DNA from: Escherichia phage UE-S1
Strand: one strand, 5' to 3'
Sequence record: ON568341.1
Length of the DNA stretch: 64,000 nucleotides
A program made the position numbers and the translations under genes. Positions 36,293 through 43,188 of this stretch are shown one piece after another. Every line of letters starts with the position of its first letter. Positions within the stretch are counted from its first letter, which is position 1. A model generated the notes under the pieces. That model was not told where the DNA came from and did no database searches. It was given only the letters and a program-made list of their open reading frames with translations.

Positions 36293-37717
36293 ATGTCGGA
36301 TAACAAATCTTCATCTAAGTTTAATGAAGTATCACCAGAACTCCAAAAGGAATGTCAAGATCGATTGGTTCTGGCTCGTACATCTTTGATGTTAACTGCT
36401 CCGTTCTTTGGTGTTTTGGCTTCGCGTTTACGTCCTGTTCCTAATAATACATGGTGTCGTACACTAGCAGTTGATGGGAAACATTTATTCTACAATGTAG
36501 AATTTGTTATGGGCATCCAAGATCAATCTAAAAAGAAAGAGTACGAAGATGCTATTCGTGAAAAACACCCAGAGGTTACTGATGAACAATTAAAAGAAAT
36601 GACAGAAGGTCTGACAGATGAAAACCTCATTGCAGTGATTTGTCATGAAATTTTGCATTGTGCTTACGACCACTTCCTTCGTCGTGGAATGCGTGATCCA
36701 CAACGATACAATCGTGCAGCAGATTATGCAATTAACCAAATTATTGTCCGTGAGAAAATTGGAAAAATCCAAAGCTCATGGTTATATGATAAAAAATATG
36801 AAGGAATGACCGCTGAAGAGATTTATATTCTTCTGGAAGATGAAGAACAAAAAGAAGAAGGTGAAGGGAACGGTCAACCACAAAGCGGTGGTGGTGAAGG
36901 TGAAGGTAAAAATCGCGGAACTTTTGGTGATATCAAAGATGGTAAGGGTAAACCAAAAGGTACAACAATTGACCAACATGACGTTCCACAAGAAGGCCAA
37001 GACGGTGGTTCAAGTGAACAGCAAAAACGCGATTATATGGATGATTTCAAAACAGCAATGATGAATGCTGCACGTGCTGGTGGCACACCAGCAGAAATCG
37101 CTCGTATGATTAATAACTTCAAAGAACCAAAGATTGATTGGCGTTCTAAACTTCAACGCACTCTTCGTAGCTGGTTGAAGTCTGATGCAACTTATCAAAA
37201 TCCAGCACGTCGTTCATGGGGTGCAGGTTTTGGTTCTAATGGTTCATTTTATGGTAATCCAATTTATCCAGGGATGAAACCAGATGATGATATTGATATT
37301 GCAATTGCACTCGATGCTTCTGGTTCTATTTCCGAAGACATGCTTCGTGATTTTATTAGTGAAGTTCTTGGTATCACTAAACAATTTAAACAGTTTAAAA
37401 TTCGTATCATGACATTTGATACTGAAGTTTATACTGTAAAAGATTACAAAACTGGTGAAGAACGTAAGATTCTGGAATATCCAGTAAAAGGTGGTGGTGG
37501 TACTGACTTTGAAGCAGTATGGGTTCATATGAAGAATGACAACTATAAGCCTAAACAGCTTGTAATGTTTACTGATGGTGAACCGTGGCAGTCATGGGGT
37601 GATCCTAACTACTGTAAAACACTGTTTGTGATTCACAGTAACCCAAATAAAGTTGCACCATTTGGTGAAACAGTACACTACGAGTATGAAGCAGACAAAA
37701 AACGTCAACGTAGTTAA
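36293..37717 (+). CDS. VWA-domain protein with N-terminal HExxH metallopeptidase-like motif (DUF2201-like partner of MoxR ATPases)
   Basis: HEILHCAYDH zinc-binding-like motif; Gly-rich acidic linker; C-terminal MIDAS-like DASGS followed by FTDGEPW. Confidence 0.65.
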   Translation: MSDNKSSSKFNEVSPELQKECQDRLVLARTSLMLTAPFFGVLASRLRPVPNNTWCRTLAVDGKHLFYNVEFVMGIQDQSKKKEYEDAIREKHPEVTDEQLKEMTEGLTDENLIAVICHEILHCAYDHFLRRGMRDPQRYNRAADYAINQIIVREKIGKIQSSWLYDKKYEGMTAEEIYILLEDEEQKEEGEGNGQPQSGGGEGEGKNRGTFGDIKDGKGKPKGTTIDQHDVPQEGQDGGSSEQQKRDYMDDFKTAMMNAARAGGTPAEIARMINNFKEPKIDWRSKLQRTLRSWLKSDATYQNPARRSWGAGFGSNGSFYGNPIYPGMKPDDDIDIAIALDASGSISEDMLRDFISEVLGITKQFKQFKIRIMTFDTEVYTVKDYKTGEERKILEYPVKGGGGTDFEAVWVHMKNDNYKPKQLVMFTDGEPWQSWGDPNYCKTLFVIHSNPNKVAPFGETVHYEYEADKKRQRS

Positions 37718-38076: not shown

Positions 38077-38733
38077 ATGGCAGCTATTCGTCATGTTGGT
38101 GTAATGCGTAATACAGGTTCACGTGTTTTTGTTGTTTGGCGTTCACTACCAGATGATCCTGACCACTGCCTTATTGTTTATCGTGATTCCTTACCAGAAG
38201 CATATGTTCATGCAGTAACTGATATTGTGATGGGTCATGGTCAATCAAACATTGATTTGTGGGAAGTAATGCATAAAATTGGTTACCTGGATGGTCGTAA
38301 AATGCTAGATGTACTACACAATATGCAACATTTACGTCGAGTTCGCACTTGTGATATTGATATGCATACTGGTGGTAATAATAAAATTTCTCTTGATGTT
38401 CTAAACAAAGCATTAGATGAAAATCAAGCGAAAGTACAAGAAGATGGTAAAGTAAAAGACTTTAACCCATTTAACCCACAAGAAGTAGACACAAAAGTTG
38501 AAGAAGCAACTATTGTTGAACAACTTATTTCTGACGCTAAAAAATATGAAAAACTTGCTCAAGAACACTATGAACGTGCATACAATTTAGAGCCAAGTTT
38601 GCGTCCACAAACACAAGTTGTTGAACAACCAAAAGATAGTAAAACAATTTATCTAGAAATTCCTGAAGGTATTTCACAGACTAAAGCTATTGAGAAAGTA
38701 AAACAACTATTCGCAGAACGCAAAGCAAAATAA
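38077..38733 (+). CDS. hypothetical protein
   Basis: ORF track; RBS AAGGAG. Confidence 0.5.
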   Translation: MAAIRHVGVMRNTGSRVFVVWRSLPDDPDHCLIVYRDSLPEAYVHAVTDIVMGHGQSNIDLWEVMHKIGYLDGRKMLDVLHNMQHLRRVRTCDIDMHTGGNNKISLDVLNKALDENQAKVQEDGKVKDFNPFNPQEVDTKVEEATIVEQLISDAKKYEKLAQEHYERAYNLEPSLRPQTQVVEQPKDSKTIYLEIPEGISQTKAIEKVKQLFAERKAK

Positions 38734-38736
38734 AAT

Positions 38737-39330
38737 ATGAAAAAGAATGAATTAGATGAAGCAATTAAAGGTTTATCTAATGTATGTTTTAGTGGCGGGG
38801 CAGCAGGTGCTGACCGCCTTTTTTCAATCTATGCAAAAAATAATGGATTTGAAGTTATTAATTTTTCATTCAAAGGTCATGTGCATAGTGTAGATGAAAG
38901 CACCATATTAGAAATACCATCCAATATTTTATCTGATATTTCTATATTAAATCAACTAAACATTGCATGTTATTCGTTGCAGCGAAAAGTACCAAAGCCT
39001 GGTTCATATGTTTACAACTTACTTGCAAGGAATAGTTATCAGATACTTAATACAGAAAGAATATATTGTATTGCAAATATTACATCGCCAACTAAGGTAA
39101 GTGGTGGTACTGCATGGGCAGTACAGATGTACATTGATTCAGTTGAAAATCCAGAAATTTATTGTTATGATATGAATTCACGTTCTGTGTTTTACTTCGA
39201 TACAGAACTGAAAGAGTTCAAACAATCATTCGTGGTTCCACCACCACATGGTAACTGGACTGGTATTGGTTCACGCAATGCAACAGAAAAACATATGGAA
39301 CATTTTATTACATTTTTCAAGGAAGAATAA
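38737..39330 (+). CDS. hypothetical protein with Rossmann-like GGAAGAD motif (possible SLOG/DprA-like fold)
   Basis: VCFSGGAAGADRLFSIYA near the N-terminus; assignment is tentative. Confidence 0.4.
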   Translation: MKKNELDEAIKGLSNVCFSGGAAGADRLFSIYAKNNGFEVINFSFKGHVHSVDESTILEIPSNILSDISILNQLNIACYSLQRKVPKPGSYVYNLLARNSYQILNTERIYCIANITSPTKVSGGTAWAVQMYIDSVENPEIYCYDMNSRSVFYFDTELKEFKQSFVVPPPHGNWTGIGSRNATEKHMEHFITFFKEE

Positions 39331-40883
39331 TGAAGCAACTACAAGAACTATATCAAAAAATTCTAGATGAAGGCGTAGAAAGCGTTGACCGTACTGGCGT
39401 TGGCACAATCAAACTTATCGGTCAACAAATGCGTTTCGACCTTAAAGATGGTTTCCCAGCAGTGACGACAAAACGTCTAGCTTGGAAATCAATGACTTCA
39501 GAATTACTATGGTTTATTGAAGGCTCCCATGATGAACGTCGCCTTTGTGAAATTTTACATGGAACTCGTGATACAGAAAAGAAAACTATTTGGACAGATA
39601 ATTGTTTAGATCGTGCAAAAAACGATCCCAATCGATTTAATGGGGAAACGGTCGGTAATATGTATGGCATGAATTGGCGTTATCAACCATCTGAACCACA
39701 TAGCTATCAATATATTGAGAGGAAAACATATATTGATGATTATGTTGAAAATCATATTTGTCCAGAAATTACTGATACATTTAATGGAGTTAAAATTCAC
39801 AAATCTGCCAAATGTGGGGATTATGAAGTTATTGGTAAACATCATAATAATATAGTAATTCGTTTCATTAACACCGGTTCATATAAAATTGTACCAAGAA
39901 CTGCGAAAAATATTAAAGATTTTTTCCAACCATCAATTGAAGGGATTGGATATTTGGGTGGTGTAATTCCTGATACATTAACTGCAAAAAAATTATATCA
40001 AATTTGGAAAGATATGATTATTAGAGTGTATAACCCTAGAAAAAATCATTTATCATATGAAAATATAACTGTATGCAAACGTTGGCATAATTTTATGAAT
40101 TTTTACAATGATGCTTTTTCATTATGGGGATTTCAAGAATTTGTTGACAGTGGGTATTCTCATCAACTTGATAAAGATTATTACGGTTCAAACATTTATT
40201 CACCTGATACTTGTATTTTTATATCAGCATCATTAAATAAAACATTAAATGGTGGTGGACATGGGTTTAAAATTTATCTTTATAAAGGTAATGTATTTTA
40301 TTCTAGAACCGATTTACAAGAATCACGTGGTTTAACAAGAAAGGCCAATTTACCAGATGATGTAACAATATTAGAAGATAATGAAACACACGTAGTAAGA
40401 CCAAAAATATACATTGATCAACTACAGCGTTGTATTGATTTAATAAAGAACGATCCAGATTCAAGACGAATTGTTATTACATCATGGAATTCTAGAGATA
40501 TTGAAAATGCAGCATTAGGTATGTGTCACCCATTAGTACAATGGTTTGTTATTAATGGTAAGTTGTCATGTTCATTTTATATGCGTAGTTCTGATAGCTT
40601 CTTAGGCTTACCATTCAACATAGCATCATATGCACTACTTACCCACATGATAGCACAAATATGTTCTCTAGAGGTTGGAGAATTGATTTATACAGGTGGT
40701 GATTGTCACATTTATAAAAACCACGTTGAACAAGTAAAAGAACAACTACAGCGAAAACCACGTGAATTACCTGAATTGTGGCTTGATCCTACCATTACTA
40801 ATATTGAAGATTTCACAATGGATTCTTTCAAATTAGTAAATTACAACCCAATGCCAACAATTAAAGCACCGATGGCTGTATAA
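39330..40883 (+). CDS. td: thymidylate synthase (ThyA type) with ~240 aa in-frame insertion
   Basis: N-terminal 118 aa and C-terminal 156 aa align along bacterial ThyA (DRTGVGT, ELLWF, DPDSRRI, GLPFNIASYALL, active-site CHP region); the insert sits at the variable loop after the W-R motif. Confidence 0.85.
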   Translation: MKQLQELYQKILDEGVESVDRTGVGTIKLIGQQMRFDLKDGFPAVTTKRLAWKSMTSELLWFIEGSHDERRLCEILHGTRDTEKKTIWTDNCLDRAKNDPNRFNGETVGNMYGMNWRYQPSEPHSYQYIERKTYIDDYVENHICPEITDTFNGVKIHKSAKCGDYEVIGKHHNNIVIRFINTGSYKIVPRTAKNIKDFFQPSIEGIGYLGGVIPDTLTAKKLYQIWKDMIIRVYNPRKNHLSYENITVCKRWHNFMNFYNDAFSLWGFQEFVDSGYSHQLDKDYYGSNIYSPDTCIFISASLNKTLNGGGHGFKIYLYKGNVFYSRTDLQESRGLTRKANLPDDVTILEDNETHVVRPKIYIDQLQRCIDLIKNDPDSRRIVITSWNSRDIENAALGMCHPLVQWFVINGKLSCSFYMRSSDSFLGLPFNIASYALLTHMIAQICSLEVGELIYTGGDCHIYKNHVEQVKEQLQRKPRELPELWLDPTITNIEDFTMDSFKLVNYNPMPTIKAPMAV

Positions 40884-40890
40884 ACGAAAA

Positions 40891-40916
40891 GGGAGAACAT
40901 CAGTTCTCCCTTTTTT
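40891..40916. terminator. bidirectional intrinsic terminator between convergent genes
   Basis: GGGAGAAC atca GTTCTCCC flanked by an A-run upstream and TTTTTT downstream. Confidence 0.6.
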
Positions 40917-40917
40917 A

Positions 40918-43188
40918 TTATCTAATTGTTACCAACGTTCTTCCGTCGAAACGTACATCAGGAGTTGAAGGTATACTGAACACTACGTTAGTGCCGTTAA
41001 ACGTCACGCTATCGACCTCAACACGAGTATAGACACCTGGACTAACCTGTTCCTGTATCTCTGCTGTGACGATGTTTGAGGCTGTTACAGTAAGGGTGTA
41101 GTAGTTACCACTTAATACCCAAGATGAAATGGTAAATGCATCGGTTCTTACTGAACCTGAACCAATTGGAACCCATTGACCTTGAACTTTTTGCATTGAA
41201 GTACGCTCGGTATTGGAGTATGCAATCATACCATCAACACCAACAGAGTTATCAATAGTAGCTAGTACTGGTAATTGAATACCATATCTATTGAAACGTG
41301 TTCTAATAATTCCATTATCATAGATACTTACATCAGCATAATTCCCCATTGAAAGTTTCAAATCTGAATCAACTAATTGCATTGTACTTTGGTTAGTAGG
41401 GCTTTCTAAAGTAATTATTCCATTTGGTAATAAGCTTAAGTTTTTAAATTTATTCGAATTACCATTAAAATTTGTATTAGCGTTGAAAGTACTAGTTCCA
41501 TTAACTACTATTGTGTTTTCTGCGGCATCACCTAATATTGTATTTCGTTGAACAATCAAGTTACCATTAGCAGTAATATTAGTCGCTGTAGTATCACCAT
41601 TTAATTTTGTATTAGCGTTGAAAGTACTAGTAGCATTAACTACCAATGTGTTTGTTGCGTTGTCACCTAATATAGTATCACTTTGAACATTCAAATTACC
41701 ACTAGCAGTAATATTAGTCGCTGTGGTATCGCCATTTAATTTACTTGTACCATCAACTACGATATTACTATTAAATTTCGTATTAGATTTAAAAGTACTA
41801 GTAGCATTAACTACCAATGTGTTTGCTGCGGTGTCACCTAATATTGTATTGCTTTGAACATTCAAATTACCACTAGCAGTAATATTACTAGCTGAAGTAT
41901 CACCAATTAATCTACTTGTACCATCAACTACGATATTACCATGAAAATCGCTTTCACCGTTTTTAAATTCCACTTGTACCGAATACATAGAACTAAATGA
42001 AATTATATTACTACTTGCACTTATACCAACATTAGTATTAGTTGGGTTATCGAAGTGTAATATTGGAGTTAATGCTGGTGTTGTTGTTGTTTGATAGAGC
42101 GTTAATGATGAGTTGTTAATTCGCACACGTTCTGTTCCGGCAGTACTAAATCCAATAGCATCATCAGCAGGATGAAAAATACCAGTATTAGTATCAGACC
42201 ATTTTTCAGGATCATTACCAGGATTACTTGTTGGGTCGAATGGTTTATTATTAAATGCTATCGCTGGTGCGGAAGCACTCCCATATACAACACCAAAACG
42301 ACCAGACCCTATTGTACCATCATCATACATTGAATCGCCTGTTCTACGTAAACATTCAATTACAACATTATCTATGGAAGTTTGAACTGTACCAGCATTA
42401 GTTCTGAATTGACGATTATTTGCAATCATAATAGTGTTATCATATAACACAGAAGCTGCTGAAATACTTGTTCTTGATTGACGAAGGCGTATGTTTTTAT
42501 CTTCAGTAATAATAATCCAATCACCATCAGATAGTGCTGTTTGATTCATTGGCACACCGGAAGCAAACGGCTTAGTTAAATCATCATCAGTTGCTAAATT
42601 AACAAGTCCACTATGCCCAGTACTAGGGATGGAAGTTGAAATAATTCTTGCAAAAGCGTTTGTTACGAGCTTTGCACCAGATATATTTGGATTAGAATCA
42701 ACATAATATAAAATTTCAACCCAATTCCCCTGTCCAGTTGGGTTAGTTGGAGTAAATGTTACTGGGCTGGTTTTTGGTTTATTCGCTTCAAAATGTGCTT
42801 GGGCGGCATCCATAATACCACGCACAACATAATAATCACCACTAAGTGATGATGAGGGTGCAGGTAGTGGGCTTTGGGCTAACGGTGGGTCAATATCATC
42901 TGGAATCGGATTATATGTACCAACAAACTGTAAACCACTAGTTACTGAATCTGGTAATTGAGATGTAAGAAGTTTACCATTTGCATCTAAGTTAGCGAAA
43001 CGCCTGTATGCCATTGAACCATCTTCAAAATCCAGAACACCCTCGAACGATTTCCATGCTTTATTGTATCTAATCATCCCTGATCTTATTACATCAGCGG
43101 TTTCTTTTGATGGTGCTTTTGGTAATTCTAAAAAAGATTTACTATCAATAATTACACCACCATCACCTCTAATTCGATTTATACTCAT
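40918..43188 (-). CDS. tail fiber protein with tandem ~40 aa repeats
   Basis: 756 aa, Asn/Thr/Ser/Gly-rich; repeats NTLVVNATSTF-x-NTK-x-NGDTTATNITASGNLNVQ. Confidence 0.65.
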   Translation of the reverse strand: MSINRIRGDGGVIIDSKSFLELPKAPSKETADVIRSGMIRYNKAWKSFEGVLDFEDGSMAYRRFANLDANGKLLTSQLPDSVTSGLQFVGTYNPIPDDIDPPLAQSPLPAPSSSLSGDYYVVRGIMDAAQAHFEANKPKTSPVTFTPTNPTGQGNWVEILYYVDSNPNISGAKLVTNAFARIISTSIPSTGHSGLVNLATDDDLTKPFASGVPMNQTALSDGDWIIITEDKNIRLRQSRTSISAASVLYDNTIMIANNRQFRTNAGTVQTSIDNVVIECLRRTGDSMYDDGTIGSGRFGVVYGSASAPAIAFNNKPFDPTSNPGNDPEKWSDTNTGIFHPADDAIGFSTAGTERVRINNSSLTLYQTTTTPALTPILHFDNPTNTNVGISASSNIISFSSMYSVQVEFKNGESDFHGNIVVDGTSRLIGDTSASNITASGNLNVQSNTILGDTAANTLVVNATSTFKSNTKFNSNIVVDGTSKLNGDTTATNITASGNLNVQSDTILGDNATNTLVVNATSTFNANTKLNGDTTATNITANGNLIVQRNTILGDAAENTIVVNGTSTFNANTNFNGNSNKFKNLSLLPNGIITLESPTNQSTMQLVDSDLKLSMGNYADVSIYDNGIIRTRFNRYGIQLPVLATIDNSVGVDGMIAYSNTERTSMQKVQGQWVPIGSGSVRTDAFTISSWVLSGNYYTLTVTASNIVTAEIQEQVSPGVYTRVEVDSVTFNGTNVVFSIPSTPDVRFDGRTLVTIR
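41460..41940 (-). repeat. tandem ~120-bp coding repeats inside the tail fiber gene (approximate bounds)
   Basis: Near-identical DNA units visible around 41.46-41.94 kb matching the protein repeats. Confidence 0.5.

Follow-up and report, generated by a model that had tools for sequence, protein, structure and literature searches.

The thymidylate synthase gene (thyA) in a 64,000-nucleotide stretch of Escherichia phage UE-S1 (ON568341.1; hereafter the window) raises the question of what 243 additional in-frame codons are doing inside an essential enzyme, how they came to be there, and whether they are removed from the RNA or the protein. An earlier reading of the letters alone (the original prediction) had described the insert as a domesticated or degenerate mobile element with homing-endonuclease-like and HNH-like motifs. 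The evidence presented here indicates that the insert is probably an in-frame, homing-endonuclease-type mobile cassette lying in the small-domain loop of thymidylate synthase (ThyA or TS) and removed from neither RNA nor protein. The narrower statement, that the insert is translated, retained and folded, descends from a homing endonuclease and moves as a cassette, can be made with high confidence. By sequence comparison it belongs, as an intact copy, to a widespread and unannotated class of in-frame and apparently unspliced homing-endonuclease-type cassettes in phage ThyAs.

The open reading frame (ORF; Table 1) encoded a ThyA homolog of 517 residues, as predicted. The Pfam profile PF00303 (Thymidylat_synt) matched two stretches of it (E 5.5e-89), of which the second paired residues 361-517 with profile positions 108-266, and NCBIfam TIGR03284 matched it at 300 bits; the profile match spanned the whole TS fold. 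Escherichia coli TS (2tsc) could be aligned with residues 1-77 and 361-517. In a multiple alignment with E. coli TS, the catalytic and substrate-binding residues R21, R379/R380, C399, R419, D422, N430, H460, and Y462 were invariant (E. coli equivalents: R21, R126/R127, C146, R166, D169, N177, H207, and Y209). The ratio of nonsynonymous to synonymous substitution rates (dN/dS) against Klebsiella phage KP13-7 was 0.05-0.06 in the parts of thyA outside the insert, here called exons. As judged from these alignments, residues 1-118 and 362-517 together are a complete thymidylate synthase. TS activity of the 517-residue protein is presumably kept, a view supported by the exon dN/dS of 0.05, the intact catalytic residues and a confident structural model.

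An assembly or annotation artefact, or a thyA pseudogene, can be practically discounted as the origin of this gene. Its unusual length, and nothing more, speaks for such an origin. Against it, the same 517-residue architecture was found in independent isolates, namely the Klebsiella phages KP13-7 (Alcyoneusvirus) and phiKp_21, and in dozens of independent metagenomic clusters, and both the intact TS catalytic residues and the exon dN/dS are at odds with a pseudogene. The comparative data already refute this explanation, including the assembly artefact that had been named as grounds for withdrawing the original prediction. A chance open frame was rejected separately, on the basis of 243 open codons at 28% G+C, a dN/dS of 0.16 and the phrog_2081 match at E 4e-32.

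The insert was located exactly at residues 119-361, as first proposed, and the frame ran through all 517 codons with no in-frame stop. Multiple alignment placed it between ...YGMNWRY and IDQL...DPDSRRI, at the site where the ThyA of phage 121Q has a 45-residue segment of its own and where Lactobacillus casei TS is about 50 residues longer. By this alignment the insert occupies a surface loop of the ThyA small domain that is naturally variable, in agreement with the original prediction. Its G+C content and its G+C at third codon positions (GC3; both in Table 1) compared with about 0.36-0.39 outside the insert and 0.22-0.27 in the flanking exons, respectively. No ORF of more than 46 amino acids in another frame overlapped the insert, promoter-like sites that could serve its separate expression occurred at chance level only, and no in-frame ATG, GTG, or TTG with an obvious ribosome-binding site was found at the start of its homologous region. 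No insert paralogue was detected elsewhere in the window by tblastn.

An AlphaFold (AF2) model was confident for both the insert and the enzyme (predicted local distance difference test score, pLDDT, 94). In this model the insert linkers were ordered strands continuous with the TS fold, and the insert is predicted to be an autonomously folding unit of three modules (beta module, core, and beta-beta-alpha tail) projecting from the small-domain loop. A structural search of BFVD returned as its best match another long "thymidylate synthase" (564 amino acids), followed by uncharacterised phage proteins and a few named homing endonucleases. The structural match of the insert to PacI was weak. A nuclease fold is plausible, not established.

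The homing-endonuclease-like character of the insert was upheld when the insert was searched alone. It matched three PHROG families labelled "HNH endonuclease": phrog_2081 (E 4e-32; insert residues 29-188 against profile positions 22-194 of 433), phrog_953 (7e-25) and phrog_374 (8e-21). An exhaustive phmmer search of 1.84 billion representatives yielded 5,799 homologs at E<=1e-3, counted at 50% identity clustering. These were mostly free-standing proteins of 170-300 residues, some with tandem duplications, and about 30 of the best 150 homologs were proteins of 470-580 residues. By tblastn, family members were present in 864 phage genomes, including 649 from Vibrio phages, and were there usually annotated "HNH endonuclease" or "hypothetical." The two free-standing members that were looked up were both situated among phage replication genes. 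A profile search of genome contigs with a closer alignment revealed five weak bacterial or metagenome-assembled-genome loci only.

The family architecture begins with a small beta module (…F.V…I.F.NTG…VKD..P) and continues with a core (W..M..RCY…Y..V.VC..W.NF.NF…LDKD…YS..TC.F…N). In relatives the tail is either an I-HmuI NUMOD-like helix-turn-helix (PF22083) or an AP2 domain. The insert motifs quoted in the original prediction were all found in the translation. The insert gave no match to the Pfam NUMOD, HNH, or intein profiles, and its description as HNH-like or NUMOD-like was not supported. The NUMOD-like tail was found only in relatives: PF22083 (cut-off 27 bits) scored 30.4 bits in the embedded copy P0280 and 33 bits in P0037, and appeared at E<=1 in 9 of the 33 sequences of the family alignment (best 3.9e-05). 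In these 33 members and the insert, Pfam and NCBIfam matches were to tail modules only and left the core domain uncovered. The only Protein Data Bank sequence matched by the family profile was the C-terminal DNA-binding module of I-HmuI, and weakly (E 0.14; hhalign probability 64%); the C-terminal helix-turn-helix of I-HmuI alone aligned with the profile, and its catalytic HNH motif did not.

The window's insert retained K196, D197, and every core residue listed in Table 1, and Cys233 (replaced by Val) was the sole family-invariant or near-invariant position that had changed. With purifying selection also acting on it, the copy is intact by this comparison and the term "degenerate" was not sustained; truly degenerate copies are found in other ThyAs. 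The polar D-K-D/N residues (D-K-D codons at 40170-40178 and the N303 codon at 40236-40238 in the window) were invariant across free-standing and embedded copies. We infer that D-K-D…N is a His-less variant of the HNH site.

Three further observations concern the family at large. P0122 (557 amino acids), which is not a ThyA, carried an LDKD-type domain together with a C-terminal "YGGRGITVC…IDRID…NCRW" domain, and appears to link the D-K-D family with the widespread D-R-I-D family. The free-standing proteins P0033, P0034, P0041, P0043, P0053, P0067, and P0146 each contained the whole module at least twice in tandem along a single chain, which could be an alternative means of pairing two putative catalytic sites. 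The stand-alone ORFs P0135 (264 amino acids) and P0047 (281 amino acids) had termini resembling the ThyA-insert linkers (…KPREDLDKDFV…/…LEDTDKVLYRP…; …DDDYVYRY…) and may be embedded copies that were excised or became split genes.

If the insert were an unrecognised self-splicing element, that is, a novel intron with an in-frame ORF or a non-canonical intein, the mature ThyA would be of normal size. Such an element would not be out of place, as group I introns carrying endonuclease ORFs are classically found in thyA genes (T4 td, phage beta22, and Bacillus phage Bobb; PMC4528723). Nevertheless, a scan of 39000-41200 with Rfam 15 found no group I or group II intron family at E<=10; the matches were chance-level small RNAs and small nucleolar RNAs only, mostly at the terminator hairpin (Table 1). 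Pfam revealed no Hint splicing or intein domain in the insert. As the original prediction had noted, intein boundaries were absent: the junctions WRY/QPSEP and RPKIY/IDQL lacked both the boundary nucleophiles (Cys/Ser/Thr) and His-Asn. Only 82 insert residues lay outside the endonuclease-like homology, too few to accommodate a splicing domain. Because there is no Hint domain, no boundary nucleophile and too little spare sequence, the insert would have to remain in the mature protein.

The selection data bear on the intron alternative. Insert dN/dS against KP13-7 was 0.157 overall, 0.08 for residues 201-310 (most of the core), and 0.18-0.20 for residues 119-200 and 311-361, which include the linkers. 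The frame was open in every one of about 45 diverged insert-bearing clusters, decayed and shortened copies included. An intron is disfavoured because it would not require a kept frame and purifying selection through the linkers, and the ordered linker strands of the AF2 model also argue against splicing. The insert also differs from the T4 td group I intron, as had been predicted, in its site and in the lack of a ribozyme signal. By these criteria the insert is not an intein and is apparently retained in both RNA and protein, and self-splicing of either kind is highly improbable.

The arrival of the insert as a cassette was visible in the genomic comparison. The window belongs to an Asteriusvirus-like jumbo coliphage that was collinear with phage 121Q over 35 kb at 85-92% nucleotide identity, and the sole complete break in this alignment fell at the recombinant cassette of Table 1. 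Phage 121Q and at least 20 sibling Asteriusvirus genomes encoded ThyAs of 309-310 amino acids without the insert. Escherichia phage ph0011, also an Asteriusvirus, encoded a ThyA of 546 amino acids with a homologous insert that was 28% identical to the window's. Presence/absence polymorphism at one site, with co-converted flanks, was thus seen among close relatives. The cassette segment was 86-88% identical to KP13-7, compared with 77-79% for the outer exon parts. The synonymous rate (dS) was 0.55 in the insert vs. 1.1-1.7 in the exons, although the value for the insert may be lowered by its extreme AT bias.

The insert architecture was shared by phages of Klebsiella, Escherichia, Vibrio, and Bacillus and by about 45 protein clusters from metagenomes, and the embedded copies resided in ThyAs only 35-50% identical to one another. 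Bacillus phage 015DV002 gp207 (L011:1572-3266) is a ThyA of 564 amino acids with the same kind of insert. The insert-bearing ThyA of Vibrio phage D181 (L010:1557-2990; 477 amino acids) was annotated "HNH endonuclease," not thymidylate synthase. In both proteins, ThyA picked up again after the insert at Pfam position 108. Among 58 insert-bearing TS proteins, host and insert identities were nearly uncorrelated (Spearman 0.09). P0231 and P0262 were 91% identical in the ThyA host and 31% identical in the insert; along the protein, identity was about 100% over residues 1-104, 98% over the last 110 or so residues and about 30% in the insert, with short diverged flanks. The opposite pattern was seen between the window and P0193 (49% host and 66% insert identity). 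A neighbor-joining tree of embedded and free-standing cores, of low resolution and with some fragments mislabelled, showed non-random clustering (17 changes vs. about 52 with shuffled labels). In the metagenomic ThyA P0151 (545 amino acids) the module was located about 12 residues upstream, before YGxxWR and between IWDAW and DLGPVYG, and the long native loop after WRAW was kept. By its position, this is a second, independent insertion site. P0082 (537 amino acids) carried the insert and had an unusual TS active-site region; it looks like a divergent TS-superfamily enzyme.

Decay was evident within the window's own insert clade. P0184 and P0029 (505 amino acids) had LSKE and LDIE replacing LDKD, with an internal deletion, and P0112, P0218, P0097, and P0201 (407-454 amino acids) also lacked the beta module and tail. 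All decayed copies were still in frame in conserved ThyAs. Taken together, the cassette, the incongruence, the varied hosts at one site and the decay series match the invasion, fixation, decay and loss cycle of intein- and intron-borne endonucleases. They also indicate that the conserved polar residues serve the element and not the enzyme. The term "domesticated" of the original prediction was not supported; the evolutionary pattern is, on this comparison, that of an element still moving between thyA genes.

These observations also bear on another explanation, in which the insert is an exapted DNA-binding domain that was never, or is no longer, a nuclease, was kept for a new property of ThyA (such as autoregulation, or attachment to DNA or to replication factories) and spread by ordinary recombination. 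Strong purifying selection on the insert and the resemblance of its modules to DNA-binding folds (Tudor/SH3-like and NUMOD-like) are in keeping with this explanation. The absence of a recognisable nuclease motif and the weak PacI match likewise favor it. However, alleles without the insert prevail within the genus (at least 20 Asteriusvirus genomes), which shows that the phages can do without the domain. Hosts that are almost identical bear inserts about 30% identical, decayed and shortened copies persist in otherwise conserved ThyAs, and D-K-D/N is invariant in free-standing and embedded copies alike. By analogy, such a pattern of dispensability, swapping, decay and invariant D-K-D/N is typical of selfish elements and not of a host-beneficial domain, and exaptation is considered unlikely.

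Under the favored interpretation of an in-frame, unremoved mobile cassette, thyA would be transcribed and translated as a single 517-residue chain in which both ThyA segments form a normal TS core. During mixed infection, the embedded module may bind and cut the insert-less thyA of co-infecting relatives near the loop, and recombinational repair would then copy the insert with a few hundred bases of flank. The occupied thyA allele would be immune because its target site is disrupted. ThyA is an obligate dimer and would therefore bring two modules together, an arrangement that, speculatively, could convert a nicking-type enzyme into a double-strand cutter. After fixation, nuclease function would decay and the insert would shrink through in-frame deletions. 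DNA cleavage, the target site and the current activity of the window's copy are the conjectural parts of this scheme. The chances that the window's copy is an active nuclease are about even. We regard as tentative, with the balance tilted slightly against it, the stronger proposal that the ThyA fusion is an active homing enzyme, permanently embedded, with an uncharacterised D-K-D...N catalytic core and a second nuclease site that TS dimerisation may supply. In all, the insert has the appearance of a selfish element whose survival within an essential enzyme depends on tolerance, not removal.

Among published cases, the ShiLan domain of actinophage DNA methylases comes closest (PMC11855218, PMC9957025). 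Both are open in the host frame, lack intein and intron features, have a sporadic, recombinant, intein-like distribution and are predicted to loop out from the host fold. The HNH endonuclease of ShiLan is read in a frame other than that of the host gene, and translation in the host frame gives a simple hairpin (PMC11855218). In ThyA, the endonuclease-like homology lies in the host frame and no alternative ORF exceeds 46 amino acids, so the module is part of the enzyme itself. An out-of-frame endonuclease as in ShiLan was rejected for the same limit on other-frame ORFs over the insert, which is accordingly not a "hidden" endonuclease of that type. The ThyA insert further differs in occupying a thymidylate-synthesis enzyme, compared with a methylase that ShiLan relatives do without (PMC11855218), and in occurring in many more lineages.

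With the free-standing I-HmuI and HNH-AP2 endonucleases (PHROG 2081, 953, and 374), the insert shares the core (W..M..RCY...LDKD...YS..TC.F...N), the N-terminal beta module, the NUMOD-like or AP2 tails of its relatives, and a location in phage replication regions. Those endonucleases differ in being separate genes of 170-300 amino acids, and compared with I-HmuI the insert lacks the canonical His-Asn-His motif, with a core that does not align with the catalytic part and is uncovered by Pfam or NCBIfam. Inteins bearing nested endonucleases resemble the insert in being selfish in-frame insertions in a conserved essential enzyme, with a cycle of invasion, decay and shortening and with co-conversion of flanks; unlike them, the insert has no Hint domain or boundary nucleophiles. 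The group I introns of thyA (T4 td/I-TevI, Bacillus mojavensis thyA/I-BmoI, beta22, and Bobb; PMC4528723) are found in the same host gene, are endonuclease-driven and exploit conserved thyA sequence. Those introns, which are located close to the codons for the active-site Cys and encode GIY-YIG enzymes, interrupt the frame and are spliced from the RNA. The insert, by contrast, is found in the small-domain loop, leaves the frame open and shows no ribozyme signal. According to the account in PMC7902536 of Gibb and Hausner (2005), the LAGLIDADG endonuclease coding sequence of fungal mitochondrial rps3 is fused in frame with the host gene; like the ThyA insert, that endonuclease would be translated together with the host protein. 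The rps3 fusion involves another nuclease family and another kingdom, and the account gives no position within rps3. The ThyA insertion lies inside its host protein, a dimeric enzyme, at a structured surface loop. Full-text literature searches found no published description of the ThyA insert, although their limited coverage does not prove absence.

The textbook view, to our knowledge, is that a homing endonuclease must be enclosed in a self-splicing intron or intein to be able to invade an essential gene. If the interpretation given here is correct, insertion into a permissive surface loop, with lifelong residence in the enzyme, is a third solution, a distinct way of life in which the element is neither spliced out nor placed between genes, and the protein is a testable natural bifunctional enzyme-nuclease. 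The 5,799 representatives would then make up a large family of uncharacterised DNA-targeting domains, whose conserved D-K-D...N site is unusual. Insert-bearing ThyAs were present in cultured phages of at least four groups and in dozens of lineages from metagenomes, with Gram-negative and Gram-positive hosts, and would provide a natural map of the ThyA sites that tolerate insertion of a 240-residue domain. The window phage and the nearly collinear, insert-less 121Q-type phages would be a ready experimental system. The only annotations given to insert-bearing genes were "thymidylate synthase," "HNH endonuclease," and "hypothetical protein," and length-based quality control and intein or intron finders will mislabel such genes.

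Table 1. Positions in the window of thyA, its insert and the associated features
Feature	Position	Strand	Details
thyA ORF	39330..40883	+	517 aa, 1,554 nt; ATG start; single uninterrupted frame without internal stop
ThyA N-terminal segment, aa 1-118	39330..39683	+	last motif YGMNWRY
Recombinant cassette, 1,029 nt	39604..40632	+	insert of 729 nt with divergent thyA flanks of 80 nt (5') and 220 nt (3'); stands in place of 405 nt of 121Q-type thyA
In-frame insert, aa 119-361 (243 residues, 729 nt)	39684..40412	+	G+C 0.28, GC3 0.13
Insert N-terminal linker/stalk, aa 119-151 (QPSEPHSYQYIERKTYIDDY...)	39684..39782	+	kept among insert-bearing ThyAs; beta-strand modelled at residues 126-130
Small beta-rich module, aa ~152-206 (DYEVIGK..IVIRFINTGSYKIV..IKDFFQPS)	39783..39947	+	Tudor/SH3/CarD-like structural matches, weak
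Family core domain, aa 207-306	39948..40247	+	W226-x2-M229-x2-R232, F258, L280-D281-K282-D283, Y290-S291, T294-C295, F297, N303
Beta-beta-alpha tail, aa 312-333 (FKIYLYKGNVFYSRTDLQESRG)	40263..40328	+	position of the I-HmuI NUMOD-like helix-turn-helix of relatives
Insert C-terminal linker, aa 334-361 (...ILEDNETHVVRPKIY)	40329..40412	+	returns to ThyA helix IDQLQRCIDLIK
ThyA C-terminal segment, aa 362-517	40413..40880	+	R379/R380, catalytic C399, R419-S420-x-D422, N430, H460, Y462
Hairpin terminator, common to thyA and the convergent structural gene	40886..40915	.	

Several observations were made on the genes around thyA. A SLOG/DprA-like (DUF2493-type) gene (38737-39330, plus strand) lay immediately upstream, and its stop overlapped the thyA ATG by one base at 39330, which suggests translational coupling. 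Further upstream, a 218-residue ORF (38077-38733) had no Pfam match; its orthologue in WPEC5 was annotated as a second "thymidylate synthase." Downstream, the hairpin had a 13-bp stem with T-runs on both sides and is probably a bidirectional terminator between convergent genes. It explained most of the sub-threshold Rfam matches (sraA, MicX, MicC, STnc320, and CsrB). No terminator-like site was found within thyA, the insert included.

The convergent gene (40918-43188, minus strand) encoded a structural protein of 756 residues with a weak bactofilin-like Pfam match and three near-identical repeats of about 45 residues (…TATNITASGNLNVQS.TILGD.A.NTLVVNATSTF…). Its 121Q orthologue has 654 residues. 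Because 41597-41775 of the window aligned a second time to the 121Q repeat DNA, the window phage has at least one extra repeat unit relative to 121Q. At 36293-37717 (plus strand), a 474-residue protein contained DUF2201 metallopeptidase-like and VWA-like domains. The label "HNH endonuclease" given to the 121Q and WPEC5 orthologues looks like a misannotation.
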